A DNA stretch of 64,000 nt from an uncultured Bacilli bacterium (GTDB taxonomy: Bacteria; Bacillota_I; Bacilli_A; RFN20; CAG-449), in NCBI GenBank assembly GCA_947629415.1, contig CANRDP010000001.1:11290-75289 (forward strand), in the 5' to 3' direction. The translations under genes were made by a program, and so were the position numbers. The first letter of the stretch is position 1. Every line of letters starts with the position of its first letter. Below are positions 2,124 through 41,728 of this stretch, piece after piece. Under the pieces are notes generated by a model. The model was given only the letters and a program-made list of their open reading frames with translations, searched no databases and was not told the DNA's origin.

Positions 2124-2155
2124 CCATAAGAATTATTTAAGGAGGAAAAAAGAAT

Positions 2156-2545
2156 ATGGCAAAATTAAGTAAAGAAGAAATGATTGCGGCCATTAAAGAA
2201 ATGTCCGTCATTGAACTCAATGATCTTGTAAAAGCAATTGAAGAAGAATTCGGTGTTACCGCTGCTGCCCCGGTTGCCGGTGGAGTTGCTGCTCCGGCTG
2301 CAGAGGAAGAAGCTGCGGCAAAAGGACCATCCGAAGTCACTTTGGTCCTTAAAGGACTTGCCGAAGGTGCGGCAAAAGTTAAAGTTATCAAAGCAGTTCA
2401 GGCCATCACCGGTCTCGGACTTATTGATGCAAAGAAACTTGTGGATAATGCACCGAGCAATATCAAAGAAAAAATTTCTCCGGCAGAAGCAGAAGGACAT
2501 AAAGCTACTCTTGTCGAAGCCGGCGCCGAAGTTGAAATTAAATAA
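2156..2545 (+). CDS. rplL: 50S ribosomal protein L7/L12
   Basis: 129 aa: N-terminal dimerisation helix, Ala/Glu-rich hinge ([21 protein letters not shown]) and the conserved C-terminal domain ...[25 protein letters not shown]... Confidence 0.92.
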
Positions 2546-2570
2546 CAAATTCTTTGAAAAAATTGATGGA

Positions 2571-2600
2571 ACCTGCCCCATTTTTTTGGGGTAGGTTTTT
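2571..2600 (+). terminator. Terminator or attenuator hairpin after rplL
   Basis: ACCTGCCCCA-TTTTTTT-GGGGTAGGT followed by TTTT. It abuts the start region of the downstream methyltransferase, so it probably gives partial termination. Confidence 0.5.
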
Positions 2601-2621
2601 GTGCATATAAGGAGAGGCAAA

Positions 2622-3260
2622 TTGAGCCAATATTTTATAAATGATCCGAAGGTTAAGGATCGACCGAGATCGATATCTTTTGAAATTCTTGGTAAAGCTT
2701 TTCATTTTGCCTCAAATGATGGTGTATTTTCAAAATCTTCCTTGGATGAAGGAAGTGCGATTTTGATAAAAACCTTACTGCAAACGAGAAAAATCAGCGG
2801 AAATGTGTTGGATTTGGGATGCGGATATGGCCCAATAGGCATTATTTTGGCCGCCTTTCATGAAGAAGCAAAATTTTTACTCGTTGATATTAATACGCGC
2901 GCATGTGCCCTTGCACGCGAGAACGCAAGAGCAATGAATTTATCTAATGTCGAAGTGCGTGTATCAAACTCTTTTTCCGGCGTAAAAGAAACATTTCAAA
3001 ATATTGTCACCAATCCACCGATTCGTGCGGGGAAAAAAGTGATGTATGCCATGTTTCAATCCGCCTATGAACATCTTACTTTCAACGGATCATTTTATTT
3101 TGTTATCAGAAAGAACCAAGGCGCGGAGACCGCATCAAACTATGTTCGCAGTGTATTTGGAAATTGTACAAGAATCGAACGATCAAAAGGTTATCATGTT
3201 TATGAAGCAAAAAAGGATATCCGTTTTGCAAATCAGGAAACGAAGGAGGACCTAGAATGA
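2622..3260 (+). CDS. Class I SAM-dependent methyltransferase, YbxB/RsmC-like with an NPPI motif
   Basis: Gly-rich SAM loop [12 protein letters not shown] and TNPPIRAG (the NPPF/I motif of N2-G/N6-A methyltransferases). Its position between rplL and rpoB matches B. subtilis ybxB. A TTG start at 2622 lies 5 nt after AAGGAGAGG, whereas the track start at GTG 2601 sits inside the terminator. The TGA stop overlaps the rpoB ATG. Confidence 0.7.
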
Positions 3261-6200: not shown

Positions 6201-6835
6201 GCCAAAAATTGGGAATCAAGATTGCCACGCCTGTTTTTGATGGAATGACCAATGATGAAATTTATGAATTGATGGATCGTGCCGGAATGTCCAAAGACGG
6301 AAAAACCGTTCTTTACGATGGACGCACCGGAGAACGTTTTGATGAAAGAATTTCTGTCGGTGTCATGTATATGATCAAATTGGTACATATGGTGGATGAT
6401 AAACTTCATGCCCGTTCCACCGGACCTTATTCTTTAGTAACGCAACAACCGTTGGGAGGAAAAGCTCAGAATGGTGGACAGCGTTTCGGTGAAATGGAAG
6501 TTTGGGCATTGGAAGCTTATGGTGCCGCTCATATATTACAAGAAATTTTGACGATCAAATCCGATGATATGGTAGGTCGTGCAAAAACTTATGAAGCAAT
6601 CATCAAAGGAAAAGAAATACCAAAACCGGGAATGCCGGAATCCTTTAGAGTATTGCAAAAAGAATTACAATCTCTTGCTTTGGATGTAAAACTTCTCGAT
6701 AAAGATAATGTGGAAATTTCGACAGATAATCTTGCAGAAGAAAATGCTATGGAAGCAAGAAAGATTTCTTCTGCGGTTCGTGAAATGACAAGCGATATTC
6801 GACTTGTAAGTCCCGAAGAAGAAAATGAAGATTAA
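3257..6835 (+). CDS. rpoB: DNA-directed RNA polymerase subunit beta
   Basis: 1192 aa carrying the canonical beta-subunit motifs throughout (..[19 protein letters not shown]..), with RBS AGGAGG. Confidence 0.97.
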
Positions 6836-6851
6836 GGAGGATAGATGATCT

Positions 6852-9800
6852 ATGTTTGATGTTAATCGTTTAGCCGCTATTAAAATCGGTCTTGCTTCAC
6901 CGGAAAAAATCCGTCAATGGTCTCATGGTGAAGTAAAGAAACCGGAAACCATCAATTATCGTTCCCAAAAACCGGAACCGGATGGCTTATTTTGCGAGAA
7001 AATTTTTGGTCCTGCCAAAGATTACGAATGTCATTGTGGAAAGTATAAGAAAATTCGTTACAATGGCGTTGTTTGTGATAAATGTGGTGTTACCGTTACA
7101 ACCAAGGCTGTACGTCGGGAAAGAATGGGTCATATTGAACTTGCCTCTCCTTGCGCTCACATTTGGTATTTAAAAGGTATTCCGAGCAAAATGGGTTTGG
7201 TTTTGGATATTTTTCCGAAACAATTGGAAGATGTCATTTATTTCAAATCGCATATTTGCTTAAATCCGGGTTCTTCAACATTATTATTCAAAAGCGAAGT
7301 AATTGATGAACGTAACGGACGCCAAATTTTCAAATCCATTATTGAAAAAGAAATTCAACCGACATTGAATCCGGAAGTGTATGATTATCAGCTTTCCGTA
7401 GATTTGATTTCCAAATTGGATAATCCTGCGGAACCATTCAATTTCTTTGATACCGCAGCTTTTGTCAATCGTTATTTGCATTCCGAATTCGGAATTGGTG
7501 CGGAAGCGATTAAACGCTTACTTTCCGAAGTGAATATCGAAGAAGAATTTAATCGTGTTCGTGAAGAATTAAAAGCAACGCAAGGTCAAAAATCGCAAAA
7601 ACGTACGAAATTAATCAAACGTTTGGAAACTTTGGAAGCTTTTAAAAATTCCGATAATAAACCGGAATGGATGATTTTAGATGCATTACCGGTGATACCA
7701 CCGGATTTAAGACCGATGCTCGCTTTGGATGGCGGTCGATTTGCCACATCGGATTTGAATGATCTTTATCGGAGAGTGATTAATCGAAACAATCGATTGA
7801 AAAAATTGATTGAAATTAATTCCCCGGCCGTTATTTTAATGAATGAAAAACGTATGCTTCAAGAAGCGGTAGATTCGTTAATCGATAACGGAAGAAAAGG
7901 AAAACCGGTTCTTTCGGCATCCGGGAAACCATACAAATCGCTTTCCAGTTCCTTAAAAGGAAAACAAGGTCGTTTCCGTCAAAATCTTTTGGGTAAACGT
8001 GTGGACTTTTCCGGCCGTTCCGTTATTGCCGTCGGTCCCAGTCTTAAAATGTATCAATGTGGATTACCGCGAGAAATGGCCGTGCAATTATTCCGACCCT
8101 TTATTGCCAGTATTATGATTAAGGAAGGCTATGCGCAATCGCATAAACAAGCCAATAAAATGATTGATCATTATGATGAAAAAGTTTGGGATATCGTCGA
8201 AAGAGTGGTTGAAAAACATCCGGTTTTGTTGAATCGTGCTCCGACATTACATCGTTTGGGAATTCAAGCGTTCCGACCGGTATTGGTTCAAGGCCATGCG
8301 ATTCGTTTGCATCCGTTAGTTTGTACCGCATTCAATGCGGACTTCGATGGTGACCAGATGGCGGTTCACGTACCGCTTTCCAAAAAAGCACAGGAAGAAG
8401 CTGTGGCGTTGATGCTTGCAAGCAATAATATTCTCGGTCCGAAAGATGGAAATCCGATTGTTACACCATCACAGGATATGATTTTGGGAAATTATTATTT
8501 AACTTTGGAATCTTCCAAAAAAGAATTCTTGGATAAGGCTAAGAAATTCCGTGAATTCGGAGATGAAGAACAGGCACAATTATATGAAGACTTCGCCGAA
8601 AAAGAAGGAAAAGTTTTCAAGAGCTTTGATGAAGTGATGCTTGCCTATCAGACACAACAAATTCATTTGCACAATCGTATTGCCGTGAAAGCCAGTTCGT
8701 TAAATAAATTGGGCTTTACGGAAGAGATGAATGCTTCTTATTTAATTACAACTGTCGGAAAGTTGATCTTCAATCAAATTTTCCCGAATGATTTCCCGTA
8801 TTTAAATGATAATCCTACGGATTGTAAAGAAAATTTATCCAGAGATCAAATAAAATTCTTTGTTCCAAAAGGTACAAATATCAAAGAATATATTGCTTCT
8901 TTGCCTTTGAAAAAACCTTTCATCAAGAAACATATTTCTTTAATCATCGATGAAGTATTCCATCGTTATCAATCGGAAAAAACTTCTGTGGTTTTGGATA
9001 AATTGAAAGATCAAGGTTTCCAATATTCCACGGTTTCCGGATTAACGGTTTCTCTTGCGGATGTGGTAAAGATTTCCGGTAAAAAGGAAATTTTGGAAAA
9101 CGGAGATAAAAAAGTCGATGTGATTCAAAACTTGTACGAACGTGGTATTTTAACGGATGAAGAACGACATAATAAAGTTTGTGAAGTTTGGGAAGATGCC
9201 AAAAATCAAGTACAGGATATTTTGAGTAAAACACTTCAAAACGATACAAGAAATCCGATTTACATGATGTCCGATTCCGGTGCTCGTGGTAATATGTCGA
9301 ACTTTGTTCAATTGGCAGGTATGCGTGGTTTGATGGCAAATCCATCCGGAGAAACCATCGAATTACCGATTAAATCCTGTTTCCGAGAAGGGCTTTCGGT
9401 TTCCGAATTCTTTATTGCTACACATGGTGCCCGAAAAGGTGGTGCAGATACTGCTTTGAAAACCGCGGACTCCGGTTATTTAACGCGACGTCTTGTCGAT
9501 GTATCGCATGATGTTATCGTGCGTGAAGTCGATTGTGGCACGGATCATGGTACTTGGGTCGAAGAAATCAAAGAAAAGGGTGAAAAAACAGCCATTGTTT
9601 CCTTATATGATCGATTGGTAGGTCGTTATACTTTACGTGATGTGAAAGATCCTAAGACCGGCGAAGTGTTGGTCCCTGAAAATACTTTGATGGATGAAGC
9701 CATGGCAAAACGAATTGTTGATGCGGGAATTCAACGTGTTGAAATTCGTACACTCTTCGGTTGTGAAACAAAAGACGGTGTCTGTATCCATTGTTACGGT

Positions 9801-10760
9801 CGTAATTTAGCGACGGGAAAAGAAGTAAAATTGGGAGAGGCTATCGGTATTATGGCCGCGCAAAGTATCGGAGAACCGGGTACTCAATTAACTATGCGTA
9901 CTTTCCATACCGGTGGTGTTGCCGGAAGTGATATTACTCAAGGTTTACCACGGGTTCAAGAGTTATTTGAAGCAAGAAAACCGAAAGGTGAGGCCGTTAT
10001 TTCCGAAATTAAAGGAAAAGTCACTTCCATTAGTGTTGACGAAAAGAATAAATCTACCATTACCGTATCAAATGATTTGGAAAGCAAAACCTATACAACG
10101 GTTATCGGTGCAAGAGTCATTGTGCAAGAGGGAGATGAAGTCGTCAATGGTCAGGAATTGACCAAAGGTGCTATTAATCCGAAAGTATTATTAAATGTTT
10201 CCGATGTTGCCGCCGTAGAAAAATATATTGTTCAGGAAGTACAAAAAGTATATCGTATTCAAGGTATTGATATTTCCGACAAACATATTGAAGTAATTGT
10301 GCGTCAGATGCTTCGAAAAATGACGGTCATCGACGGCGGAGATACGGAAATGCTTCCGGGTACAAGAGTGGGCATTTTACAATTCACGCAAATGAATGAG
10401 AAAGCCATTAAAGAAGGAAAACGTCCCGCGGTAGCTTCTCCGATTATTTTGGGAATTACCAAAGCTGCTTTGGATACGGATTCTTTCTTATCCAGCGCTT
10501 CCTTCCAAGAAACGACAAAGGTACTTACCGATGCGGCATGCAAAGGAAAAGTGGACTATCTCCATGGTTTGAAAGAGAATGTCATGATTGGTAAACTCAT
10601 TCCTGCCGGAGCTCAATTCAATCGAAAAGAAGAAGTCGAAGAAGTGAAAAAAGAAGATTTCTTCCAAGAAAAAGACGAAATGTCTTTACCTCCTTTGCAG
10701 GATGAAGAAGAAAACAGTAATGTCATTAACTTCGTGACCGATGATCTCGATAATGAATAA
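6852..10760 (+). CDS. rpoC: DNA-directed RNA polymerase subunit beta'
   Basis: 1302 aa with a zinc-binding N-terminus ([21 protein letters not shown]), the catalytic NADFDGD motif, and an acidic C-terminal tail. Confidence 0.97.
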
Positions 10761-10780
10761 AAAAGTCGGTAGATAAAAAA

Positions 10781-10811
10781 ATAGCGAAAAGAAATTTTCG
10801 CTATTTTTTAT
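10781..10811. terminator. Bidirectional rho-independent terminator between the convergent rpoC and ATP-grasp genes
   Basis: ATAGCGAAAA-GAAA-TTTTCGCTAT has a T-tract downstream on the plus strand and an A-tract upstream, which is a T-tract on the minus strand. Confidence 0.6.
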
Positions 10812-10835
10812 TGTGAATACTTTAATTCTGTTTTT

Positions 10836-11738
10836 TTAAGAAGAAACGGAATAAATTTTTTGATAAATATATTCGGCATAAGCTTTGGCAATATTTTTTC
10901 CTGTGACTTTTTCGATACCTCCAAAAAAAGCATTGGAATTGACTTCGCATATTTTATATCCGTCTTTTTCAAAAAGAACATCGATTCCGCAATAATCAAG
11001 ATGAAGAATACGACTGACTTTTTCACAAAGATCCGTTAATTCTTTTGAAGGAGTAAAAGGTATTCCTTTTCCTCCGAGCTCAAGATTGGAGCGAAAATCT
11101 TTTTTGGATTCTCTTATCATGGAAGCGATCACTTTATTTCCGATGACGATAACGCGAATATCTCTTCCTTGACTGAAAGATATAAATTCCTGAAATAAAT
11201 GAGGTTTACATTTCACTTGTTCCATAAGTGTCATGAGTTGTTTTCGGTTTTCCACTTTATAAACGCCATTTCCCAAAGATCCGTAGCTGGTTTTCAGAAT
11301 CAAAGGGTAAGAAAGTTCTTTTTCAATATGTTGATATGTTTCCTCTTTTATGGGTGTTTCTTGATTGTAACATAATAATCCCGGGAGAGTTTTTGGCATG
11401 GGAATATTTTGATTTGCCAATAAAATAGAAGTAATCATTTTGTCATCACAAGCACGTATGGCAAAATGAGAATTAAATAATTTCATACCTTCTTTTTCTA
11501 AAAGAAAGGATATGTATTTATCTTTATCTAAATAAACGCAAAAATCATAAGATAACAAAGAACAGTCAATGGCTCCTTTGCTATTAATTGTGGCATAAAA
11601 AGAATCGTTTCTCAAAATATCCATGGAGACATCCAGTTTTTCAAATTCTTCTTTTAATCTTCTGGATTGATTTAAACTATGTTCTAAAGTGGTATAAGCA
11701 TGAATTAAAATAAGACCTTTTTTCATATTTCGATACAC
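10836..11738 (-). CDS. RimK-like ATP-grasp ligase (alpha-L-glutamate ligase family)
   Basis: The 300-aa protein has the ATP-grasp fold signature (..LSYPLILKTSYGSLGNGVYKV.., ..CGIDVLFEKDGYKICEVNSNAFFGG..). An alternative start is MKKGLILIH at 11724. Confidence 0.6.
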   Translation of the reverse strand: MYRNMKKGLILIHAYTTLEHSLNQSRRLKEEFEKLDVSMDILRNDSFYATINSKGAIDCSLLSYDFCVYLDKDKYISFLLEKEGMKLFNSHFAIRACDDKMITSILLANQNIPMPKTLPGLLCYNQETPIKEETYQHIEKELSYPLILKTSYGSLGNGVYKVENRKQLMTLMEQVKCKPHLFQEFISFSQGRDIRVIVIGNKVIASMIRESKKDFRSNLELGGKGIPFTPSKELTDLCEKVSRILHLDYCGIDVLFEKDGYKICEVNSNAFFGGIEKVTGKNIAKAYAEYIYQKIYSVSS

Positions 11739-11904
11739 CTATATATAAAATTTATCAAAATATTTTAAATTTTCAAGATGAGAAATAAAACAAAGGAAAA
11801 TCCGTTTGTATATTTTTTTATTTTTGGTAAGAAGAAAAAAATAATATCAAAAAAAATCGATGCTTTTATTGAAAGGGGACATGAAAAAAAATTAATCAAA
11901 AATA

Positions 11905-11933
11905 TTGACAATAAAAAACGAAAAGAATATGTT
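11905..11933 (+). promoter_or_regulatory. Promoter of the SGNH-lipoprotein operon
   Basis: TTGACA at 11905-11910, a 17-nt spacer, TATGTT at 11928-11933. Confidence 0.35.
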
Positions 11934-11939
11934 AGAAAT

Positions 11940-12000
11940 GTAAGTGAAAGCACTTACAATTAATTTTTAAGGATATTTATGAACTATGTTCGGATATACG
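11940..12000 (+). promoter_or_regulatory. Bipartite conserved operator or leader motif, copy 1
   Basis: GTAAGTGAAAGCACTTAC (7-bp inverted repeat with a 4-nt centre) lies at 11940-11957, 6 nt after the -10. TTATGAACTATGTTCGGATATACG lies at 11978-12000. Near-identical copies occur at 15090-15149 and 20012-20067. Confidence 0.55.
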
Positions 12001-12063
12001 GATTAATTGATATCTTTTTGTTCTGTTGTTCATAAATGCCATGAAAGGATTAGGAAAGAAAAA

Positions 12064-13161
12064 ATGAAAAAAAGATTATTAGTTTTATCGTTAGCAGGTG
12101 TCGTGCTTTTCGGATGCAATAATGAAATTGTTGATTCGCAATCTGCAACATCAACGGGGGGGGGTACTTCGTCGGTAGGTACCACTTCACAAAATGCATC
12201 TTCAAGCAGTAATTCAGTAGTATCGGAAGGAAATAGTACTTCATCAAGTTCTTCGGTGTCTTCAAGTTCTTCTGTATCTTCAAGTTCTTCGGAAAGTTCC
12301 TCTTCACAAAGTTCTTCAGAAGAAGCGAAACAACAAGCTACCACAGTTTATCTTTTAGGAGAACAAGTTGCGGCAAAAGTAGATATGAAACCAAGCTCTA
12401 CCAATTATAAGTATTATTATCCAGCTAAGGGATTTGGAGAAACTTTGCCGGATTATTTTAACGAAAATGTAACTTTTAAGAATTTATCTGCGAATCAAGG
12501 CAGCGTTAATTCATATACATTCCCAACTGATGCAAAAACTAGTGAAGGATATAATGATTATGTGGCAAATTTGAAACAAGGAGATTATGTCTTAATTTCA
12601 TTTGGTATTAATGATCGAAAAATAGATACGAGCAAAAATCTGAATGGTGTTGCGTTAGGAACGGAAGAAGGACAATTTCAATATAATTTAACAAAATATG
12701 TAAACGAAGCTAAAAGCAAAGGAGCAACTCCGATCTTATTAACACCTTATGTATCTTATGATAGTAGTAAAAAATATGAAGCAAATAGTAAATATCTTTA
12801 TAACAAAGCAGAAACCAAGGCACACGAAGGAAATTATCCTCAGGCCATTCGCGATTTGGCGGAAGAATTAGATGTTATGTGTATAGATAATACTACTTGG
12901 ACAGCGGATTTATTTAGAAGTGCTCCTTCCGATGAAGACGTTCAAAAGTGGTATTGTTGGAAAAACTCTGAGGCAGATGGAAAACTGATGACAAATACAT
13001 TTAATGCCTATGGCGCACAGAAAATTGGTTATCATATTGCTGATGTATTGAAAAATAGTCAAAATGCTCTAGGAAAGTACATTAAGGATGATATTGAAGA
13101 TCCGACAGAAGCAGAATATTTAATAGCAAATACAGAAAATTATGTTAAAAGTAATAGTTAA
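12064..13161 (+). CDS. SGNH/GDSL-fold lipoprotein, a catalytically inactive paralog (CE12 RGAE-like pseudoenzyme)
   Basis: Lipobox signal MKKRLLVLSLAGVVLFGC followed by a 60-aa Ser-rich linker. It is homologous to the downstream gene, but GDS is replaced by GEQ (VYLLGEQVAAK) and DGTH by DGKL, so the nucleophilic Ser and the His are both lost. The track start at 12007 was rejected because ATG 12064 has an RBS. Confidence 0.6.
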   Translation: MKKRLLVLSLAGVVLFGCNNEIVDSQSATSTGGGTSSVGTTSQNASSSSNSVVSEGNSTSSSSSVSSSSSVSSSSSESSSSQSSSEEAKQQATTVYLLGEQVAAKVDMKPSSTNYKYYYPAKGFGETLPDYFNENVTFKNLSANQGSVNSYTFPTDAKTSEGYNDYVANLKQGDYVLISFGINDRKIDTSKNLNGVALGTEEGQFQYNLTKYVNEAKSKGATPILLTPYVSYDSSKKYEANSKYLYNKAETKAHEGNYPQAIRDLAEELDVMCIDNTTWTADLFRSAPSDEDVQKWYCWKNSEADGKLMTNTFNAYGAQKIGYHIADVLKNSQNALGKYIKDDIEDPTEAEYLIANTENYVKSNS

Positions 13162-13179
13162 TAAAAACAAAGGAAAAAT

Positions 13180-14910
13180 ATGAAAAAAAAGAAATTACTT
13201 GTTTTATCATTGACGAGCTTTGCTCTATTCGCTTGTGGAAATACAGGAGAAACGAGTGCAACAACATCCTCTGTTGCATCATCTTCAGTTTCTTCAAATA
13301 GCGAAAATGACAGTAGTTCTCAAACGAGTTCATCCGTTGAACCATTAAAGGCTACGACATTGTATATGATTGGTGATTCCACTTGTGCGAATTATGACTT
13401 AGCGACAAAAAATACAACGTATTACTACCAAATTCAAGGTTTCGGAACAACAATCAAAGATTATTTCAAAAAAGAAGTAACGGTTAAAAATCTTGGTGTT
13501 GGTGGTGCTTCTACAAAGAGTTTCCCAACGGAAGATAAGTCGAAAGAAAATTATGCGGAATTTAAAAATAATGTAAAAGCAGGGGATTATGCGATTATTA
13601 CTTTTGGGCATAATGATGAAAAGAAAACAGCTGTTGGTACACAGCTAGGAACGATTGCAGATACAATTACAAGCGATACGTTCCAAGGATATCTTTATTC
13701 CAATTATATTAAGGTATGTCTTGATGCCGGTGCTACACCGATTCTTGCTACACCTATTGCGCGTTATGATAGCAAAGGAAATTGGGAAGAAGGCACTAAG
13801 TACTTACATGTAATGACGGAAGATTCAACTTTCAATGCAGGGGATTATGCTCAAGCTATTCGTGATGTGGCTGAAAAATATTCCCTAACTTGTATTGATA
13901 CAACCAAAATGACAGGAGATGCTTTAAGAGCCCTAGGAGCGGAAGAGGGTAAAAAATGGTATGGTTGGCCAACTTCCACATCTTATGATGGTACGCATGT
14001 CAATATTTATGGAGCACAACAAGTGGGTTATATGATGGCAAAAACATTGAAGGAATCCACAAATAATTTAGGAAAGTATGTCGTAGATGATTTAAAAGCA
14101 CCGACAGAAGCAGAATATTTAAAACAAAATCCTTCATATGTTGAACCGACATATATAGCACCGGGAGAAGGAACATGGTCTAGCCATTGGAATACGACAA
14201 ATAATTGGCATGGATCTGTTTTCGGAGGAATGAAAAAAAGTAGTTTTGCCAAAGAACTCGATAAATACTCTATCACGGAAAATGGTGGAACATCCGCGGA
14301 TGGAACATTAAGTGTCACTTTAGCAGATACGGATCCTAATTACTCGGGAAGATTGAATTCGACTGCCGACGGAATGGTGATGTATTTCCAACAAATCAAC
14401 AAAAATGATTCATTTACTTTGGAAGCAAGCGTGAAAATCGATGACTTGACGAGTGATGCGGTACGACAACAGCAGAATGCTGTGGGTATTATGGTTCGTG
14501 ATGATATGTATATTGATCAATACATTTCTGGTTTGACTTCTCGTTATGCCGCGGCAGGATATTACGGAACAGCTTTTGATGAAGCCGGATCGTATACATA
14601 TTGTGCTTGGGCAAGAAGATATGATGATACGAATACAACCGAAGGAAAAAAAGATAGAATTAAAGAATCGTATTATCCTAAAGAAAATAGCACGATTGAT
14701 GTAAAGATTGTAAAAAATGATACTTCTGTTCAAACATATTACAAACTAGCTACGGATTCTCAATATCAAGAAGGACAATCTTTTGATACCGATTTAGAAT
14801 TAACAGCTGTGGATTCGGATTATGTCTATGCAGGTCTCTTCCTCTGCGGAGGAGCAGGAATGACGGCAACCTTTACGAATGTGAAGTTAACAATCAATCC
14901 TGTTGAGTAA
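13180..14910 (+). CDS. SGNH/GDSL esterase lipoprotein (rhamnogalacturonan acetylesterase/CE12-like) with a C-terminal beta-sandwich extension
   Basis: Lipobox LFAC. The SGNH blocks are intact: I MIGDSTCANY, II LGVGGAST, III FGHNDEK, V DGTHVN. A C-terminal domain of about 250 aa has unknown function and could be a carbohydrate-binding module (CBM). Confidence 0.6.
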   Translation: MKKKKLLVLSLTSFALFACGNTGETSATTSSVASSSVSSNSENDSSSQTSSSVEPLKATTLYMIGDSTCANYDLATKNTTYYYQIQGFGTTIKDYFKKEVTVKNLGVGGASTKSFPTEDKSKENYAEFKNNVKAGDYAIITFGHNDEKKTAVGTQLGTIADTITSDTFQGYLYSNYIKVCLDAGATPILATPIARYDSKGNWEEGTKYLHVMTEDSTFNAGDYAQAIRDVAEKYSLTCIDTTKMTGDALRALGAEEGKKWYGWPTSTSYDGTHVNIYGAQQVGYMMAKTLKESTNNLGKYVVDDLKAPTEAEYLKQNPSYVEPTYIAPGEGTWSSHWNTTNNWHGSVFGGMKKSSFAKELDKYSITENGGTSADGTLSVTLADTDPNYSGRLNSTADGMVMYFQQINKNDSFTLEASVKIDDLTSDAVRQQQNAVGIMVRDDMYIDQYISGLTSRYAAAGYYGTAFDEAGSYTYCAWARRYDDTNTTEGKKDRIKESYYPKENSTIDVKIVKNDTSVQTYYKLATDSQYQEGQSFDTDLELTAVDSDYVYAGLFLCGGAGMTATFTNVKLTINPVE

Positions 14911-15083: not shown

Positions 15084-15089
15084 AAGAAT

Positions 15090-15149
15090 GTAAGTGTAAG
15101 CACTTACAAATTTATTTATACAAACTTATGAACAATGTTCGGATATACG
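15090..15149 (+). promoter_or_regulatory. Bipartite conserved operator or leader motif, copy 2
   Basis: GTAAGTGTAAGCACTTAC at 15090-15107 lies 6 nt after the -10. TTATGAACAATGTTCGGATATACG lies at 15126-15149. Confidence 0.55.
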
Positions 15150-15173: not shown

Positions 15174-16373
15174 ATGAAATTCTTGGAAAAAGAAATTGAA
15201 ATGAACCTGGAATCATATATTACGGATTTATGTATTCGTTCTACTTATGAAAGACCTCTTTGGAATCAGGAAATATTGATGGGATTAAAAAAACCCGGTT
15301 GGAATTATATTGATGGTTGCATGTTCAATGGGTTATTAAGTCTTTATGAGGAGAATCATAATGATAAAATTATCGAATATATTGATCATTATATATCTCC
15401 ATTGATTGATGAAAACGGATATATAAAGATTTATTATTACAATAATTATAATCAATATACTGAAGAAGGACATGATTCGGATCCATGCAATGAAGGAAAA
15501 GTTCTTTTTACTTTATATGAAAAAACGCATAAAGAAAAATATCGTAAGGCAATTGAATTTCTTCATAAACAAATCGAAGAATTACCGAGAATCCAAGGAA
15601 ATTTTTGGCATAAAGAAAAATATCCCAATCAAATCTGGCTGGATGGATTATATATGATTCAACCTTTTTATGCTATGTATGAAAAGAAGTTTAATTGTGA
15701 AAGAAATTTCAATGATATTGTTTATCAATTAGAAAATTGTTTTGATTTGACCTTTGATAAAAAAACTTCTTTAATGATGCATGGATATGATGGAAATTAT
15801 TTAGATAGCAAAGAAAAGATGATATGGTCTAAAGAAAAAAACGGGCAATCAAAGATTGCTTGGCTCAGAGCTTGCGGATGGTATGAAATGGCTCTTGTGG
15901 ATACTTATGAATATATCAATCAACCAAGATTACAAAGTAAATTAAAAAATCTGTTACAAATTACAATCGATGGATTGATGAAGTATAAAGTAAAAAATAC
16001 GGATATGTTCTATCAAGTCATTGATAAAAAGAAAAAAGCAGGAAATTATTTTGAAACTTCCGGATCACTCATGATTGCATATGCGATTTTAAAAGGGTGT
16101 CGACTTAAGATGCTGACGAAGCGATATCAAGAAATGGGATTACGTATCTTCCGCGGAGTACTGAAAAAATATTTTTATAGGGGAAAAGATGATAAATTTC
16201 ATTTGGGAGGTATATGCATTGGGGCAGGGCTATCGGCGTCGAAAACCGATCGGAATGTTGGAACATATCGAATGTATATTTCTCGAAAAGTGGTTCAAGA
16301 TGATGGAAAAGCCATTGGACCTCTGATGATGGTATTATCAGAAATACATAGAATGGAAAAGGAGAGTGTATGA
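15174..16373 (+). CDS. Glycoside hydrolase family 105/88-like (unsaturated rhamnogalacturonyl/glucuronyl hydrolase), cytoplasmic
   Basis: 399 aa with no signal peptide. The (alpha/alpha)6 Glyco_hydro_88-type motifs WNYIDGCMFNGLL, IWLDGLYMIQPFYAMY, HGYD and AWLRACGWYEMALVDTYEY resemble YteR/YesR and UGL. Confidence 0.55.
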   Translation: MKFLEKEIEMNLESYITDLCIRSTYERPLWNQEILMGLKKPGWNYIDGCMFNGLLSLYEENHNDKIIEYIDHYISPLIDENGYIKIYYYNNYNQYTEEGHDSDPCNEGKVLFTLYEKTHKEKYRKAIEFLHKQIEELPRIQGNFWHKEKYPNQIWLDGLYMIQPFYAMYEKKFNCERNFNDIVYQLENCFDLTFDKKTSLMMHGYDGNYLDSKEKMIWSKEKNGQSKIAWLRACGWYEMALVDTYEYINQPRLQSKLKNLLQITIDGLMKYKVKNTDMFYQVIDKKKKAGNYFETSGSLMIAYAILKGCRLKMLTKRYQEMGLRIFRGVLKKYFYRGKDDKFHLGGICIGAGLSASKTDRNVGTYRMYISRKVVQDDGKAIGPLMMVLSEIHRMEKESV

Positions 16374-17890
16374 TGAAAAAACGATTCTTATTTTTAACGG
16401 GAGTATTGTTATCTCTTTGTGCCTGTGGGGGAACGAATTCCGAGATCCCCGAATCGCATCTTCGATTTAATAATATTGCAATCCGCGAATCCAAACTTGT
16501 AGCCGGTGCCATTGATGTTTTTGTTGAAACACTGGATAAAGATGTCGATATCTATTATCTTTTTGTGGATCATGAGGCAAAAGCACCTGCAGTTTCTCAA
16601 ATCATAGAGGGAAAAGACTATGATGGGGTGAAAGTATTGAGTTATGGTTCCGAAAAAGATATGGTTTATAAAACAGTCACCGGTTTTGATGAATTGGCAT
16701 GGATTGATTTTTATTGTGTACTTCAACAGGAAAATAAAATTTCGGATATCTATTCGACAAGCGTTATGACATTAGATGCTAAAGGCGTAGAAGATAAAGG
16801 AGATGGTACATTAGAAAATCCTTATCGTATATACACTGTAGAAGATTTAGAACAGGTAGGAGCAGAAAGTAGTACATTAAGTGCTTATTATGAACTTCAA
16901 AATGATCTGGATTTGAGTGCTTTTTACGGAGAAGAAAAAAAATCCTTTACACCTATAGGGACGCAAACGGGATCTGCGAAGGCATTTAATGGATCGTTTA
17001 ACGGAAAAGGATATACGATTTCCAATCTTTATATTAATTCAACTTCCGAATCTACAGGATTGTTTGGACAATTAGGTGCAGACGGAGTAATTTCTAATCT
17101 AAATATTGAAAATGCAAAAGTATATTCCACACAACAACGTACGGGTATTGTTGTAGGATACTCCAAGGGTACTGTGGCTAATATCAATGTAATCAACGGA
17201 ACGATTCATGGAACAAGAAAAGTCGGCGGTGCCATCGGAGATGTTTATGAAACAGGTCTTTGCAATCGTATTTTTGTAAAAGATACTTATGTCAAAGGAA
17301 CCGGTGATGATGTCGGTGGTTTAATCGGATGTGTTGATGCTACGGCAGGAGATACAAATCCTATTGAAGTTAAAAATAGTTATGCTATAGCTACGGTAGA
17401 AGGAACTAAGTATGCCGGGGGATTCATCGGATATGCCCGATGCATGCTTATTGATGGTTGCTATGCAATGGTAAATATTACCGGTACAGAAGGTGTCGGT
17501 GCTTTTATTGGAATGGCTCAACATCGTAGCGGTTCTCCGGTTCAACCGAAAGTTTCGAATTGCTTTGCTTTAAAAGGGCATGCCGAAGGAACATCGAATG
17601 CGGGAAAATTCTTTGGTAATTTTTCAACTTCCAATGGAGGTGTAGATACTTCAAAGATTTATTATAGTCAGATTACTCTTACTGCACCAACGGATAAAAC
17701 GGGTAATTATGGCCAGGAAATCACTTGGTTTAATTCTAGTAATGAATTGAAAGCATGGATAGAAAATACACAAAATATTCAACTGGATTTTGAATATTCT
17801 TGGGAAATTCAGGAAAATGCTTTGCGACCTACTCTGAAAAATTCGAAAGCATATGATGACGGAGTCACGATGAGCATAGGAGGAGAATAA
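16370..17890 (+). CDS. GLUG-motif right-handed beta-helix lipoprotein
   Basis: Lipobox LSLCAC. Conserved module GDGTLENPYRIYTVEDLEQVG...FNGSFNGKGYTISNLYINS, followed by repeated GG(L/I)(I/A)G turns (VGGAIGDV, VGGLIGCV, AGGFIGYA, VGAFIGMA). A paralog lies at 35246-37018. Confidence 0.5.
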   Translation: MMKKRFLFLTGVLLSLCACGGTNSEIPESHLRFNNIAIRESKLVAGAIDVFVETLDKDVDIYYLFVDHEAKAPAVSQIIEGKDYDGVKVLSYGSEKDMVYKTVTGFDELAWIDFYCVLQQENKISDIYSTSVMTLDAKGVEDKGDGTLENPYRIYTVEDLEQVGAESSTLSAYYELQNDLDLSAFYGEEKKSFTPIGTQTGSAKAFNGSFNGKGYTISNLYINSTSESTGLFGQLGADGVISNLNIENAKVYSTQQRTGIVVGYSKGTVANINVINGTIHGTRKVGGAIGDVYETGLCNRIFVKDTYVKGTGDDVGGLIGCVDATAGDTNPIEVKNSYAIATVEGTKYAGGFIGYARCMLIDGCYAMVNITGTEGVGAFIGMAQHRSGSPVQPKVSNCFALKGHAEGTSNAGKFFGNFSTSNGGVDTSKIYYSQITLTAPTDKTGNYGQEITWFNSSNELKAWIENTQNIQLDFEYSWEIQENALRPTLKNSKAYDDGVTMSIGGE

Positions 17891-17891
17891 A

Positions 17892-19904
17892 ATGAAAAAG
17901 ATATGGAAAAAAGGTTTAATTATTGTTTCATTGACAACGATACTTCCTTTCGTGTCTTGTAACGCAAATCAAGAAAATTCGAATGCTTCTACTTCGGAGA
18001 ATACAAGTGAATCAACGGAAGTAAAAACAAATTTTGAAATTGTTAAAGAATTTATGGATTCATTTTCCATTGATAATTCGGATGCGATTATTCAAAATAT
18101 TTATTTGCCGAAAAAATTTGCTTTGGAAGGAGTTGTCACATGGCAAAGCAGTGAACCGAAAGTTATCACCAGTGAAGGTCATGTGACACGAAATAAGGAA
18201 AAAGATGTTCCGGTTACTTTAACGGCTATTGCTATGTTAGGATCTACAAGAGAACAACGAGTGTATCATGTAGTAGTAAAAAAAGTAAATGAAACTGCCG
18301 AAGGCAAAATTGATGAAGCGATGTCTCAGTTTACTTTACTGGAAAACAACACGATTGACCGCGATATTATGGTTCTTCCTCGTGTCACAGATATTAATGG
18401 CGTTTATATTACTTGGGAAACTTCCGATGCTTCCATTATTGATTTAAAGGGAAATGTTTATCGGGGGAATGAAGAAAAGAAAGTGACTTTGACTGGAACT
18501 TTCTCTTATGGAGAATATCGTAAGAAAAAATCCTTTGAAATCGTTGTACAGACAAAGGCCGACGACAGTATTCCTGTGATCGATGAAAATGATTCTCGAA
18601 TTTTAAATAAAGTGTATGTCGCCAGTGTCGTGGATATTGTTACCGCGGGATTGGATGCTAGACCAGGTGATGCTATTATCTTAAGAGATGGTACTTATAT
18701 GAATGTGGAGTTTAATATTGAACGCTCCGGCACAGCAGAACATCCTATTTTCATTTTTGCCGAACATCCTGGAAAAGTGATTTTAAGTGGAGAATCAAGA
18801 ATCAATATTCTGGCAGATTATGTTATTGTCGCAAATTTCCGATTTGAAAACGGCTATCCTTCTAAAGATAGTGGTGTGGTTAATCTTGAAGGAAATCATC
18901 TGCGCTTTACAAACAATGTTATCAAAGAATACGAAATCCATGAAAATGATTACAAATGGTTATCTTTAAGAGGAAGATTTCATGAGATCGATCGAAATAC
19001 TTTTGATGGCAAAACGACCGGAGGATCTTTGTTAACCATTTGGAGAGATGATATGTTCTCTCAGGATCACCACATTCATCATAATCAATTCTTGAATTAC
19101 CAAGAAGCCGGAGGTGCCAATGGATATGAAACCATTCGTGTCGGCACATCTACTTATTCACAAACGGATTCCAATGTTTTGATCGAAAATAATCTATTTG
19201 AAAATATTTCCGGAGAAATTGAAATTATTTCCATTAAATCAGGAAGAACGATTGTACGTAATAATACCTTTAAAACCTGTAAGGGTCTTGTTACCGCACG
19301 TCATGGAAAAAATGATTTGATTGAAAACAATGTCTTTCTTTGTGGGCGTGAAAAAAGTGATGGTTCCATTGAACGTATTGATGATACCGGAGGCATTCGT
19401 ATGTATGATGCCGGACATGTTGTCCGTAATAATTACATGCAGGATGTCGAAACTTCTTCCAACACCCGTGCGGGAATTGTCGTACATTCGGGAGTGAACG
19501 ATTATGGTGATACAACCGTCATGAATCTCCAGTGGACTCCGTTTAATGTCTTGATTCAGGATAATACGATTATTAATAGCCGCAACAGCATTTTGATTGG
19601 AGGAAAATATAGTATTCCGTGCAAAGATGTTACTTTTGATAATAATCTTGTTGTTTCACCAACCTATGGTGCGATACGCTATGATAAAAATCCTGTAAAT
19701 CCCACTTGGATCAATAATCATTTCTATGCACCTACTTACTTAGAAAGTAATAGTGCGTTTAAAGATGTAATAGCTCCCGATTGGTTTTCAACGGCGATAC
19801 CGCAACTGATTAAAGGAGAAAACGGATTATATAAAATAGCAGAAAATTACGGCGCTTCTAATCTCACGGTTCAAACCAGTGAGACTACAGGAACAAATTA
19901 TTAA
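17892..19904 (+). CDS. Polysaccharide lyase lipoprotein with a PL6-like parallel beta-helix and two N-terminal Ig-like repeats
   Basis: Lipobox PFVSC. The motif GEIEIISIKSGRTIVRNNTFKTCKGLVTARHGKNDLIENNVF matches the PL6 (chondroitinase B/AlyP) catalytic region, with the Lys of IKS and the Arg of RHG conserved. Two roughly 90-aa repeats precede the helix. Confidence 0.5.
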   Translation: MKKIWKKGLIIVSLTTILPFVSCNANQENSNASTSENTSESTEVKTNFEIVKEFMDSFSIDNSDAIIQNIYLPKKFALEGVVTWQSSEPKVITSEGHVTRNKEKDVPVTLTAIAMLGSTREQRVYHVVVKKVNETAEGKIDEAMSQFTLLENNTIDRDIMVLPRVTDINGVYITWETSDASIIDLKGNVYRGNEEKKVTLTGTFSYGEYRKKKSFEIVVQTKADDSIPVIDENDSRILNKVYVASVVDIVTAGLDARPGDAIILRDGTYMNVEFNIERSGTAEHPIFIFAEHPGKVILSGESRINILADYVIVANFRFENGYPSKDSGVVNLEGNHLRFTNNVIKEYEIHENDYKWLSLRGRFHEIDRNTFDGKTTGGSLLTIWRDDMFSQDHHIHHNQFLNYQEAGGANGYETIRVGTSTYSQTDSNVLIENNLFENISGEIEIISIKSGRTIVRNNTFKTCKGLVTARHGKNDLIENNVFLCGREKSDGSIERIDDTGGIRMYDAGHVVRNNYMQDVETSSNTRAGIVVHSGVNDYGDTTVMNLQWTPFNVLIQDNTIINSRNSILIGGKYSIPCKDVTFDNNLVVSPTYGAIRYDKNPVNPTWINNHFYAPTYLESNSAFKDVIAPDWFSTAIPQLIKGENGLYKIAENYGASNLTVQTSETTGTNY

Positions 19905-20005: not shown

Positions 20006-20011
20006 GGAAGC

Positions 20012-20067
20012 GTAAGTGAAAGCACTTACAAATTTTTTAAAGATATATCCGAACTTTGTTCGGATAT
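20012..20067 (+). promoter_or_regulatory. Bipartite conserved operator or leader motif, copy 3
   Basis: GTAAGTGAAAGCACTTAC at 20012-20029 lies 6 nt after the -10. A perfect 10-3-10 palindrome ATATCCGAAC-TTT-GTTCGGATAT lies at 20045-20067. Confidence 0.6.
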
Positions 20068-33209: not shown

Positions 33210-33210
33210 A

Positions 33211-34377: not shown

Positions 34378-34385
34378 GAGGAGTT

Positions 34386-37018: not shown

Positions 37019-37029
37019 GAGGATAAAAA

Positions 37030-39135: not shown

Positions 39136-39147
39136 ATTAGAAAGTCA

Positions 39148-39178
39148 TATCCGGATGGATATTTTGTTCATCCGGATA
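39148..39178 (+). terminator. Hairpin after the 37030 gene
   Basis: TATCCGGATG-gatattttgtt-CATCCGGATA with a weak U-tract. Confidence 0.35.
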
Positions 39179-39259
39179 GACTTTTCCATATGGAATATCT
39201 TTCTATGTTACTAAACATTTGCTTGACATAGAAAGATATGTACAGGAAAGGAAAATTGC

Positions 39260-41719: not shown

Positions 41720-41728
41720 GGAGAGTAT

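Follow-up and report, generated by a model that had tools for sequence, protein, structure and literature searches.

Esterases of family CE12, among them Aspergillus aculeatus RGAE (1deo), Bacillus subtilis YxiM (2o14) and YesT/YesY, and Dickeya PaeY, have the same SGNH fold and belong to the same family as two proteins, A and B, encoded in tandem in the 64,000-nt stretch of DNA from an uncultured Bacilli bacterium that was analyzed here (hereinafter, the window). Like B, YxiM (PMC9487903) and PaeY combine an esterase with a beta-sandwich module. The lectin-fold domain of B is C-terminal, whereas in PaeY it is the SGNH part that occupies the C-terminus.

Non-catalytic partners of polysaccharide-degrading enzymes are represented by SusE and SusF of the polysaccharide-utilisation loci of Bacteroidota, which are tandem beta-sandwich proteins encoded in SusC/D loci. 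A is likewise a non-catalytic lipoprotein from a locus for polysaccharide utilisation, but the analogy concerns function only: with its alpha/beta/alpha SGNH fold, A comes from a wall-less or Gram-positive-type Bacilli lineage, has no homology to SusE/F and lacks the tandem beta-sandwich architecture, and the ORFs scanned at the locus, which uses an ABC transporter, yielded no SusC/D-like domains. The logic of a dead domain beside an active one is the same in E. coli PgaB, in which the C-terminal domain is a natural pseudoesterase that binds PNAG next to the active esterase domain (PMC7828330). However, PgaB is a single fused polypeptide with a CE4-like (beta/alpha) barrel that acts in periplasmic biosynthesis and export, whereas A has an SGNH domain and would act in surface catabolism; binding by PgaB was shown experimentally, whereas binding by A is a proposal. 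In CtCE2 of Clostridium thermocellum, the active site doubles as a cellulose-binding site, and one substitution that abolishes esterase activity increases the affinity for cello-oligosaccharides nearly 8-fold (PMC7828330). Thus, an SGNH-type cleft is able to bind a glycan without catalysis, and the CtCE2 structure (2w9x) is found at rank 40 among the fold matches of A; however, CtCE2 belongs to CE2 rather than CE12 and the natural protein is catalytic, whereas in A the whole cleft is remodelled, beyond the Ser. Dead paralogs are also retained beside active pectinases, in the same pectin-digesting pathway, among the GH28 pseudoenzymes of leaf beetles (PMC6549527); unlike A, these are eukaryotic secreted gut proteins with another fold. 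Full-text literature searches of incomplete coverage retrieved no description of a natural dead CE12/SGNH pseudoesterase in catabolic loci.

The gene pair and its locus

The elements of the locus, in coordinates of the window, are as follows.

11905..11933, + strand: promoter-like site 5' of gene A (TTGACA, 17-nt spacer, TATGTT; consensus scan, 10/12 matches)
11939..11958, no strand: operator-like perfect palindrome TGTAAGTG-AAAG-CACTTACA, directly 3' of the promoter-like site and ahead of gene A
12064..13161, + strand: gene A, a 365-aa predicted lipoprotein and CE12-derived pseudoesterase (signal with lipobox, Ser-rich linker, dead SGNH domain)
13180..14910, + strand: gene B, a 576-aa predicted lipoprotein, putative CE12-type acetylesterase with an intact catalytic set and a C-terminal lectin-fold domain
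15089..15108, no strand: second copy of the palindrome, 5' of the GH105 gene
15174..16373, + strand: GH105 (YteR-like) unsaturated uronyl hydrolase, a locus partner (Pfam PF07470)
16370..17890, + strand: lipoprotein with no assigned function; its position in the locus is conserved, and the ortholog has a faint Glug motif
17892..19904, + strand: PL6-family polysaccharide lyase lipoprotein with an aBig_2 domain (Pfam PF14592)
20011..20030, no strand: third copy of the palindrome, with 1 mismatch, 5' of the ABC-transporter operon

Gene A starts with ATG, 5' of which lies a Shine-Dalgarno-like site, AGGAAAG, and is followed by gene B on the same strand after an intergenic gap of 18 nt. The two products are 43% identical over 274 aa (BLASTP, E 4e-61), far beyond chance. 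The promoter-like site alone is a weak indication because such sites are not above the chance number in the region. The palindrome is present in 3 copies in the window (11939, 15089, 20011) versus 0.14 expected by chance; the copy ahead of gene A is kept in a second strain (L001), and a copy with 1 mismatch lies ~115 nt upstream of the ortholog of A in another species (L002). The GH105 product matches PDB entry 4wu0 (E 1e-65) and YteR (E 4e-48), and the PL6 lyase aligns to PL6 alginate lyases of the PDB (E 1e-54). Which substrate the locus acts on is uncertain, too: its lyases are PL6 and alginate-lyase-like enzymes, not classical pectate lyases.

Domains and catalytic residues of A and B

The following parts of the two proteins were delineated, all on the + strand.

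12064..12117, + strand: signal peptide and lipobox of A (residues 1-18, ending in LFGC), read directly from the sequence
12118..12333, + strand: Ser-rich linker of A (residues 19-90, 72 aa, 49% Ser)
12325..13158, + strand: dead SGNH domain of A (residues 88-365; Pfam PF13472 above threshold)
12358..12366, + strand: block I remnant of A, G99-E100-Q101, which is GDS in active homologs (Ser nucleophile replaced with Gln)
12496..12498, + strand: Q145 of A, replacing the oxyanion-hole Gly of block II, which is 100% conserved in the family
12604..12618, + strand: block III remnant of A, G181-I182-N183-D184-R185, which is GHNDE in the family (Asn kept, His to Ile, Glu to Arg)
12970..13005, + strand: block V remnant of A, EADGKLMTNTFN (residues 303-314), with the His absent, a 4-aa insertion and a cluster of strain differences
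13342..14145, + strand: SGNH domain of B with the catalytic set intact (residues 55-322; S67, G109, N145, D270, H273)
14146..14907, + strand: C-terminal PelX_N-like beta-sandwich domain of B (residues ~323 to 576, ~250 aa), with no counterpart in A

Both N-termini read as lipoprotein signals, with a Lys-rich start and a hydrophobic core that lead into a lipobox pattern ending in VVLFGC18 in A (MKKRLLVLSLAGVVLFGC) and in FALFAC19 in B (MKKKKLLVLSLTSFALFAC). The linker of A contains an 18-nt tandem repeat at 12244-12292, one unit of which is missing, in frame, from strain L001. The Ser-rich linker had previously been considered a gain of A; this is not the case given that the linker of B is Ser-rich as well (37 aa, 41% Ser) and the length of the linker varies from ~35 to ~105 aa among orthologs.

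The AlphaFold2 model of the SGNH domain of A is confident (pLDDT 90.5, pTM 0.91), in agreement with the preliminary description, according to which this copy retained the fold. The top Foldseek matches are RGAE 1deo (E 4.5e-13, TM 0.77 normalised to the target) and YxiM 2o14. By sequence, A alone matches YxiM weakly (E 0.027), and the only NCBIfam match is a sub-threshold one to PaeY (profile positions 389-491 of 549); the assignment of A to CE12 is transitive, via B and the family profile, which matches YxiM with E 3e-28 and RGAE with E 1.6e-24 in the PDB. Taken with the similarity of A to B, these profile and fold matches support the original proposal that the genes are tandem CE12/RGAE-like lipoprotein paralogs.

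B was described as the copy with the full set of catalytic residues, and this holds: the motifs are GDS (S67), the block II G109, GHND (N145) and DGTH (D270, H273). B aligns with RGAE in the GDST and GHND blocks (E 7e-4), and its Ser, Gly, Asn, Asp and His are in register with S9, G42, N74, D192 and H195 of RGAE. All four SGNH blocks and homology to both RGAE and YxiM, as expected of a CE12 member, are thus present in B. The description of B as an SGNH lipoprotein was correct for this domain but overlooked the 250-aa PelX_N-like lectin-fold domain. We identified it via PF25849 annotations on homologs and a fold search; its AlphaFold2 model (pLDDT 88) matches legume lectins in Foldseek (E 2e-8, TM ~0.45-0.5).

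In A, the loss of the Ser nucleophile and of the triad His is confirmed, and goes further than was claimed because the block II Gly and the block III His are lost as well. Gln is found at the nucleophile position in none of ~118 active homologs, and is common to A and its ortholog P0028, as is a 2-aa insertion in the Q145 loop. An alternative nucleophile in register had been named as the observation that would contradict inactivity; block I of A (GEQVAA) offers no in-register Ser, Thr or Cys. The change of DGTH to DGKL in block V was read correctly as to the His, which is absent in every register (T312 is the equivalent, or L308 in the earlier register). When P0028 is included, however, DGKL is best interpreted as the Asp position (D305) followed by a 4-residue insertion, GKLM; with many homologs, MAFFT places M309 at the Asp position instead, so that the Asp is either retained as D305 or replaced with M309 depending on the register. 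A contains just two His residues, H254 and H324, neither of them close to block III or block V. Additionally, A has lost T102, R146, E185 (now Arg), R231, H246 and T311, which are 95-100% conserved in the ~118 active homologs (99-100% for R231 and H246). Q101, R185 and N311 are derived residues shared within the dead clade and never found in active homologs. It should be noted that pI and charge of the domain do not separate dead from active copies. Of the CE12 hallmarks, A lacks the Ser-His-Asp triad and, with Gly replaced with Q145, an intact oxyanion hole, though the Asn (N183) is kept. Without the nucleophile, the His and the oxyanion Gly, A cannot be filed as a CE12 enzyme.

Selection on A and distribution of dead copies

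In the comparison with strain L001 (98.6% nucleotide identity), A shows 8 synonymous and 6 nonsynonymous changes, i.e., a dN/dS of 0.17 (binomial test against neutrality, p = 0.004). Three of the differences, E303A, A304E and L308E, fall within the block V remnant, and 5 substitutions in 16 nt cluster in one loop. Synonymous divergence between the strains is 8/233 sites in A versus 4/410 in the neighbours (Fisher p = 0.03). Between species, A and its dead ortholog show a dN of 0.49 with a saturated dS of at least 1.2, and throughout this divergence all three genomes have kept the reading frame intact. In neutral simulations of 268-codon ORFs, 1.2% were open after 0.1 substitutions per site, and none of 2000 at 0.25 or more. 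The dead domain evolves ~2.5-2.9 times faster than the active twin. Between the two dead orthologs, identity is 83% at the family-core positions that A has kept and 35% at the 17 family-conserved positions that it has lost, compared to 29-49% at ordinary variable positions. This ordinary level indicates that no strongly conserved new site has taken the place of the active site. Purifying selection acts on the fold core of A, not on the old catalytic positions. A combines the absence of catalytic residues with purifying selection and retention across species, which together characterize a pseudoenzyme, and is very probably a selectively retained, catalytically dead protein.

The dead ortholog, P0028, comes from another species, a rabbit-gut Bacilli MAG (GCA_947626895.1, Lapin-008 bin59), is 47% identical to A, and shares the Ser-to-Gln change, the block II insertion and the loss of both His residues. 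Its gene order is that of the window: dead copy, active copy, GH88/105-family gene (PF07470), Glug lipoprotein, and a gene cut by the contig end. Monophyly of the dead clade has 99% bootstrap support, and the seven B orthologs form a clade of their own (93%), outside which the dead copies fall, in a tree built by neighbor joining with Kimura distances only, in which long-branch effects could bear on the depth of the dead clade. Homologs were collected with the domain alone and with a five-sequence profile, as the Ser-rich linker of full-length A drew 8000 low-complexity candidates and left 7 matches; P0028 was missing from the matches of the profile despite its place in the query alignment. 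In a scan of 185,579 species genomes for the dead clade, only the Lapin-008 contig matched, and no further orthologs were found in JGI metagenomes. With two species-level lineages only, site-wise selection analysis is weak.

Among the esterase homologs, the closest named relative of the Bacilli lineage to which the window and Lapin-008 bin59 belong is Anaeroplasma. In related genomes (L003, L004, L009), the slot upstream of the esterase is occupied by a non-catalytic protein that consists of PelX_N-like lectin-fold domains only. We rejected the idea that these proteins are SGNH-less orthologs of A: they are as far from A-type as from B-type C-terminal domains (22-33% identity), which makes them positional analogs. 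In at least one related lineage (L006-L008), the esterase has no upstream partner at all. In PL1 pectate-lyase loci of Oscillospiraceae, predicted lipoproteins fuse a dead N-terminal with an active C-terminal CE12-like domain (P0033, P0043, P0263), and these dead-plus-active fusions arose in an independent lineage.

Possible roles of the retained dead copy

The ancestor of the pair would have been a lipoprotein esterase gene encoding a CE12 SGNH domain and a PelX_N-like lectin-fold domain, which underwent tandem duplication. The Ser-His-Asp triad, together with the oxyanion Gly and further residues of the cleft, would then have disappeared from the upstream copy, before the split of the window lineage from the Lapin-008 bin59 lineage; in the window lineage, the dead copy would later have lost the C-terminal lectin-fold domain, too. 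A is predicted to reside on the cell surface and to be co-induced with the esterase B, the GH105 enzyme, the PL6 lyase and the ABC importer, where it may serve as a non-catalytic accessory. Its most likely role would be to hold an acetylated polyuronide (pectin-like or alginate-like), or the oligosaccharides thereof, at the surface by means of the remodelled, fast-evolving cleft, letting B and the lyase act on the substrate. Such lectin-like capture of acetylated glycans is something we can only infer. As the former active-site positions evolve like ordinary variable ones, binding via the old cleft is plausible but unproven. We regard glycan binding as the mechanism of A as a tentative proposal that may well fail, and the explanation as a whole, i.e., a retained pseudoenzyme including this mechanism, as somewhat short of evenly probable.

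Several side observations touch on this role. The setting of the locus and the presence of lectin-fold proteins in the slot of A in related loci speak for binding, though circumstantially. The lack of conservation of the lost positions and the absence of R231 and H246 are unfavourable for binding in the old active site, the simplest version of the idea. Against the explanation as a whole stand the lectin-fold domain that B itself possesses and the loss of such a domain from A of the window, the partnerless esterases of L006-L008, the faster evolution of the dead domain compared to its twin, the restriction of the dead clade to two species-level lineages, and the uncertain substrate.

A different non-catalytic function, in which A binds protein rather than glycan, as a heterodimer partner, scaffold or allosteric activator of B or of another surface protein of the locus, appears unlikely, although a scaffold would fit selection on the fold core with a relaxed old cleft. 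The tight linkage of the pair, kept in two species, and the recurrence of the dead-then-active order in one polypeptide in Oscillospiraceae, which hints at physical association of the two domains, are compatible with a partner as well; however, stalks of 72 aa in A and 37 aa in B would put the domains at different heights above the membrane, and the replacement of A with lectin-fold proteins in related lineages points to glycan binding. Still less likely, in our estimate, is a function of A as an adhesin for host mucus or plant particles, or as a decoy drawing host, phage or plant factors directed at the active esterase. Decoy roles have reportedly been discussed for the beetle GH28 pseudoenzymes, and the long surface stalk whose length varies by repeat slippage, the fast-evolving surface, and the loop-clustered strain differences with raised synonymous divergence resemble surface proteins under diversifying pressure. 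Nevertheless, a shared operator connects A to a catabolic locus, and such co-regulation favours a function in substrate use; the substitutions are few, and those clustered in the loop may stem from a single mutational event.

Continued enzymatic activity is improbable. A non-canonical mechanism, for example with general acid/base catalysis by E100, Q101 and N183, or some other chemistry on the SGNH fold, could be read into the retention of the block III Asn and of an acidic residue at position 100 and into the shared derived Q101, R185 and N311; but A has neither a candidate nucleophile in block I nor a His near blocks III and V, the oxyanion Gly is replaced, and the other former active-site positions differ between the two orthologs, which is unexpected for a conserved catalytic site. 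Finally, the preliminary description allowed for a functionless duplicate decaying into a pseudogene, a reading that we strongly disfavour and consider highly improbable. The loss of all catalytic residues, protein evolution faster than in B, the loss of the C-terminal domain in the window lineage and the narrow phyletic distribution would be in line with decay. Against it stand the dead state common to A and its ortholog, a dN/dS below 1, a frame that would not have stayed open under neutrality, the conserved core and confidently predicted fold, the conserved palindrome upstream, and the strain indel in the linker that preserves the frame. A is a real, retained CE12-derived pseudoesterase, probably with a non-catalytic helper role.

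An automated CAZyme pipeline would register A as an esterase, given that PF13472 is above threshold and is also assigned to the near-identical gene call P0001; tallies of this kind credit gut genomes with more deacetylation capacity than they have. Probes that recognise acetylated glycans could also be developed from a natural inactive SGNH scaffold. If A indeed binds glycan or partners an active enzyme, it would represent a natural pseudoesterase of the SGNH fold in polysaccharide catabolism, with parallels in the CE4-like domain of PgaB and in engineered CtCE2. It is conceivable, although on balance we doubt it, that CE12-derived dead SGNH domains form a recurrent, so far undescribed non-catalytic partner module, a CBM-like family that arose from active acetylesterases on two or more occasions (in the window and Lapin-008 bin59 as a stand-alone gene upstream of the esterase, in the pectin loci of Oscillospiraceae as an N-terminal fusion) and holds acetylated polyuronides or the active esterase at the cell surface. 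That such fusions arose independently in Oscillospiraceae suggests that the design is a general one for deacetylating pectin-like polymers.

Catalytic residues and domains of the two lipoproteins

Genes A and B, which encode the upstream lipoprotein with a dead SGNH domain (i.e., one without the catalytic residues) and its downstream paralog with an intact catalytic set, are separated by 18 nt.

12064-13161, + strand: gene A, 365 aa, counted from the ATG after a ribosome-binding-like AGGAAAG site
12244-12292, in the linker of A: 18-nt tandem repeat, 2.7 copies, part of the Ser-rich stalk
13180-14910, + strand: gene B, 576 aa
14146-14907, + strand: PelX_N-like C-terminal domain of B, about 250 aa (homolog Pfam annotation and model)

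The tandem paralogy proposed in the preliminary description agrees with the BLASTP comparison of the two proteins (43% identity over 274 aa, E = 4e-61), both of which pass the Lipase_GDSL_2 Pfam threshold. A profile of 120 family sequences matched the CE12 structures YxiM (2o14; E = 3e-28) and Aspergillus RGAE (1deo; E = 1.6e-24), and the GDST and GHND blocks of RGAE align in register with those of B. As had been described, B has the complete catalytic set (S67, G109, N145, D270 and H273). In A, block I is GEQ, with Q101 in place of the Ser nucleophile; the Gly of block II is replaced by Q145, and the loop that holds it carries a 2-aa insertion; and block III is GIND, in which the His is gone and the Asn is retained. 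Block V of A has no His in either alignment: in the best register, with the ortholog included, D305 is followed by a 4-aa insertion and then by T-N-T312, and in the many-sequence MAFFT alignment M309 takes the Asp position instead. The reported change from GDS to GEQ and the loss of the triad Ser and His hold, whereas the reported block V register, DGKL, is probably off by an insertion. The only His residues in the A domain are H254 and H324, and block I offers no in-register Ser, Thr or Cys as an alternative nucleophile. We further considered the 58 positions of the SGNH domain with at least 80% conservation among about 118 active homologs. Of these, 41 are retained in A and 52 in B; each of the 17 positions lost from A lies in or beside block I, II, III or V, or is R231 or H246, both of which show 99-100% conservation among active homologs. 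The earlier observation of catalytic loss is thus correct and, if anything, understated. Judged by every sequence criterion, A is catalytically dead.

That the upstream copy keeps its fold, as had been suggested, is supported by a confident AlphaFold model (pLDDT 90.5, pTM 0.91) with RGAE and YxiM as the closest solved structures; the A domain is thus predicted to fold as an SGNH domain. The description of B as an SGNH protein applies to its N-terminal part but overlooked the additional C-terminal domain of about 250 aa. In B homologs, PF25849 (PelX_N) is annotated C-terminal to the SGNH domain, and the model of B residues 321-576 (pLDDT 88, pTM 0.90) is closest to legume lectins with a concanavalin-like beta-sandwich (E = 2e-8, TM about 0.45-0.5, a fold-only resemblance). 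Given this lectin-like model, the active enzyme probably already has a carbohydrate-binding module of its own; A in the window has no such C-terminal module.

Both proteins start with lipoprotein-type signals (...LFGC18 in A, ...LFAC19 in B). Contrary to what had been supposed, the Ser-rich linker that follows is not a gain specific to A: that of A comprises 72 aa with 49% Ser, and B has one of 37 aa with 41% Ser. It should be noted that P0001, a database protein near-identical to A, is called from an upstream TTG (window 12007-12063), adding 19 residues before the signal peptide as counted on the window ORF. The ATG at 12064, with a Shine-Dalgarno-like site upstream, is the more plausible start; the signal peptide of A would be buried if translation began at the TTG.

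Retention of A between strains and species

A second strain is represented by contig L001 (ENA ERZ27249662), which is 98.6% identical to the window over positions 10351-14177. The two copies of A differ by eight synonymous and six nonsynonymous substitutions (dN/dS = 0.17; neutral expectation about 79% nonsynonymous, p = 0.004). The L001 copy also has exactly one 18-nt linker unit fewer, in frame; the stalk length is thus polymorphic through repeat slippage.

When 1.84 billion cluster representatives were scanned exhaustively with HMMER, the best match to A was P0028 (651 aa), from an "uncultured Bacilli bacterium" of the rabbit sample Lapin-008 (CANQTY010000102.1, GCA_947626895.1). P0028 has a signal peptide nearly as in A, a longer Ser/Thr linker, the motifs GDQ, GAND and NTNN (where DGTH is expected), the same 2-aa insertion in block II, and a PelX_N-like domain that is still present. 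Downstream of it come an active esterase, whose SGNH domain is 73% identical to that of B, a GH88/105-family gene (PF07470), a Glug lipoprotein and a gene truncated by the contig end, so that gene order is that of the window as far as the contig extends. A neighbor-joining tree built from 43 domains unites A with its strain variant and P0028 (99% bootstrap), outside the clade of seven B orthologs (93% support). As the dead clade is monophyletic and shared by both species, the tree indicates a single inactivation event predating their split.

In the interspecies comparison, both genes show saturated synonymous divergence (dS about 1.2). The dN values, 0.49 in the A pair against 0.20 in the B pair, put the dead copy at about 2.5 times the rate of the active one, yet far from neutral evolution. 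When a 268-codon ORF was mutated in a neutral simulation with the base composition of the window, only 1.2% of the ORFs were still open at 0.1 substitutions per site; at 0.25 or more, all had been interrupted. Given the second strain, the ortholog, the interspecies divergence and the simulation, the alternative of a decaying duplicate is rejected, and these comparisons show that A is retained by purifying selection across the two species.

Identity within the A pair (A vs P0028) and the B pair (B vs the esterase beside P0028), by class of position
Class of position; A pair; B pair
Family-core positions retained by A (41); 83%; 98%
Family-conserved positions lost by A (17); 35%; 88%
Moderately variable positions (50-80% family conservation); 49%; 77%
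Highly variable positions (<50% family conservation); 29%; 59%

These values show that the old active site of A has been released from constraint, and identity by position class gave no sign of an equally strong new constraint at the lost positions. The pattern fits a protein in which the fold is under constraint and the former cleft is free to change. Seven derived residues are common to the dead clade and never occur in active homologs (Q101, F138, S142, S179, R185 in place of Glu, Y229 and N311).

Differences between the two strains cluster in what is left of the block V loop (window 12971-12986), where five substitutions fall within 16 nt (E303A, A304E, silent G306, L308E) and may represent one mutational event, either multi-nucleotide or a micro-conversion/recombination. 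Synonymous divergence between the strains is about four times higher in A than in B or rimK (Fisher p = 0.03).

Locus, regulation and related loci

B is followed by a YteR-like GH105 gene (PDB matches with E from 1e-65 to 4e-48) and, further downstream, by a conserved lipoprotein without assigned function. Transport genes (ABC permeases, a 691-aa lipoprotein and an MsmK-like ATPase) also lie downstream. The lyase-type genes and the sites discussed below are as follows.

17892-19904: PL6 lyase, PDB match closest to alginate lyases (E = 1e-54)
30191-32113, 33145-34377 and 32460-33209: ORFs with Hepar_II_III_C and Alginate_lyase Pfam domains, and an SDR
11939-11958: palindrome copy 1, just past a promoter-like site, 105 nt before A
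15089-15108: palindrome copy 2, ahead of the GH105 gene
20011-20030: palindrome copy 3 (one mismatch), ahead of the ABC-transporter operon

The palindrome, TGTAAGTG-N4-CACTTACA, is a perfect 20-bp one, with three copies in the window versus 0.14 expected by chance. It is also found in strain L001, before the transporter operon in the related loci L006-L008 (L006 12636-12655) and, with one mismatch, in L002, the locus of P0028, where it occupies positions 3-22, some 115 nt ahead of the dead ortholog. It is probably the operator of a regulator, for which the IclR-family gene at 34290-35171, the sole recognisable regulator gene in the window, is the candidate. Since the palindrome precedes A, GH105 and the transporter operon and is kept in relatives, we infer that A is apparently the first gene in one of three units transcribed under common control.

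The CE12/PaeY-like esterases point to pectin as the substrate, whereas the lyase families are usually annotated as acting on alginate or other polyuronides, so the substrate may be other than classical pectin; for this reason we describe it as a putative acetylated uronate-containing polysaccharide, and no more narrowly. The host belongs to an uncultured low-GC Bacilli lineage, its nearest named relative by esterase is Anaeroplasma bactoclasticum, and its genome was absent from the 185,579 species representatives searched. PL6 and Hepar_II_III_C/Alginate_lyase ORFs beside GH105 and CE12-type esterases are an odd mix for a herbivore-gut Bacilli lineage. A second module at 35246-42727 may be a paralogous degradation unit. 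It contains a Glug lipoprotein (35246-37018), possibly related to the lipoprotein at 16370-17890, a right-handed beta-helix protein (37030-39135), a Lipase_GDSL_3 esterase (41729-42727) and an 819-aa ORF in which no Pfam match was found.

Among full-length related SGNH domains, 255 of 269 have both the Ser and the His. Some of the remainder form a second dead clade of independent origin, made up of the N-terminal domain of each of three two-domain lipoproteins, P0033, P0043 and P0263. These domains cluster with one another, and their sister group is formed by the active C-terminal domains of the same proteins. Neither the block V His nor the block I Asp is present in any of the three. The annotated source of P0263 is a Ruminococcaceae bacterium MAG, and the protein family adjoins PL1 pectate lyases. 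Such loci, and those with a different protein ahead of the esterase, are listed here.

L011 6784-8523, L012 6738-8477, L013 4381-9764: Oscillospiraceae PL1 loci with fusions of a dead N-terminal and an active C-terminal CE12-like domain
L003 8490-9986, L004 3880-5979, L009 3835-5862: PelX_N-like-only protein ahead of the esterase

The dead domain of the Oscillospiraceae fusions has no His and a block I of GGS or GGT, and L013 has three fusion genes in tandem. As the dead clade in the fusions is separate, the dead-then-active order has two origins, one as a pair of genes and the other as a fusion. In L003, L004/L005 and L009, the upstream protein is non-catalytic, with one or two PelX_N-like lectin-fold domains and a conserved C-terminal domain, and is followed by a conserved 42-44 aa ORF; neither gene is present in the window. 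Domain comparison led us to reject these proteins as orthologs of A. The upstream gene in L006-L008 encodes a small unrelated CLIPPER-domain protein, hence there is no non-catalytic surface partner there. Across these loci, a predicted non-catalytic surface protein ahead of the esterase is common but not obligatory.

Several large multi-domain proteins (P0030, 2189 aa; P0072; P0144; P0169; P0160) contain several CE12-like domains, some minus Ser and/or His. In P0030, domain 60-318 has GGQG and no His, 648-909 is apparently intact, and the block V His is missing from 1151-1394. Multi-domain architectures may harbor dead SGNH modules more widely. B itself appears to be a mosaic: in the SGNH domain it clusters with the L002 ortholog (2122-3819; 73% identity, 99% bootstrap), but its PelX_N-like domain is 70% identical to that of the L009 ortholog (6001-7833) and just 48% identical to that of L002, suggesting domain-level recombination between lineages.

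Possible role of the dead domain

The mechanism we prefer, tentatively and as somewhat less than an even prospect, is that A, which is preceded by a conserved operator-like site and is presumably lipid-anchored on a long Ser-rich stalk and co-expressed with the catabolic genes, would capture polymer or oligosaccharides at the cell surface without catalysis. By analogy, the C-terminal pseudoesterase of PgaB and the binding function of the CtCE2 cleft resemble this proposed role (PMC7828330). Known pseudoenzymes derived from carbohydrate-active enzymes include chi-lectins and the PgaB C-terminal domain (PMC7828330), and beetle GH28 pseudoenzymes are another case (PMC6549527). The searchable literature yielded no CE12 or SGNH pseudoesterase described from a catabolic locus, and the CE12 sections of two reviews (PMC9487903, PMC10154613) mention no CE12 pseudoesterase.

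A role as protein partner or scaffold for B is favored by the fused dead and active homologs, and we consider it the foremost of several unlikely alternatives. The position pattern is compatible with this role as well as with a remodelled binding surface, and does not specifically favor acetyl binding in the old oxyanion hole. Another surface function, such as adhesion or a decoy, is a little less likely still. Residual or new catalysis, with the nucleophile gone from block I, is improbable, and decay, in view of the strain and species comparisons, is the least credible reading of all. The phyletic range of the dead A-type copy is narrow; the finding is real, the support for A as a functional pseudoenzyme goes beyond what the preliminary description could have known, and its function is a predicted one.
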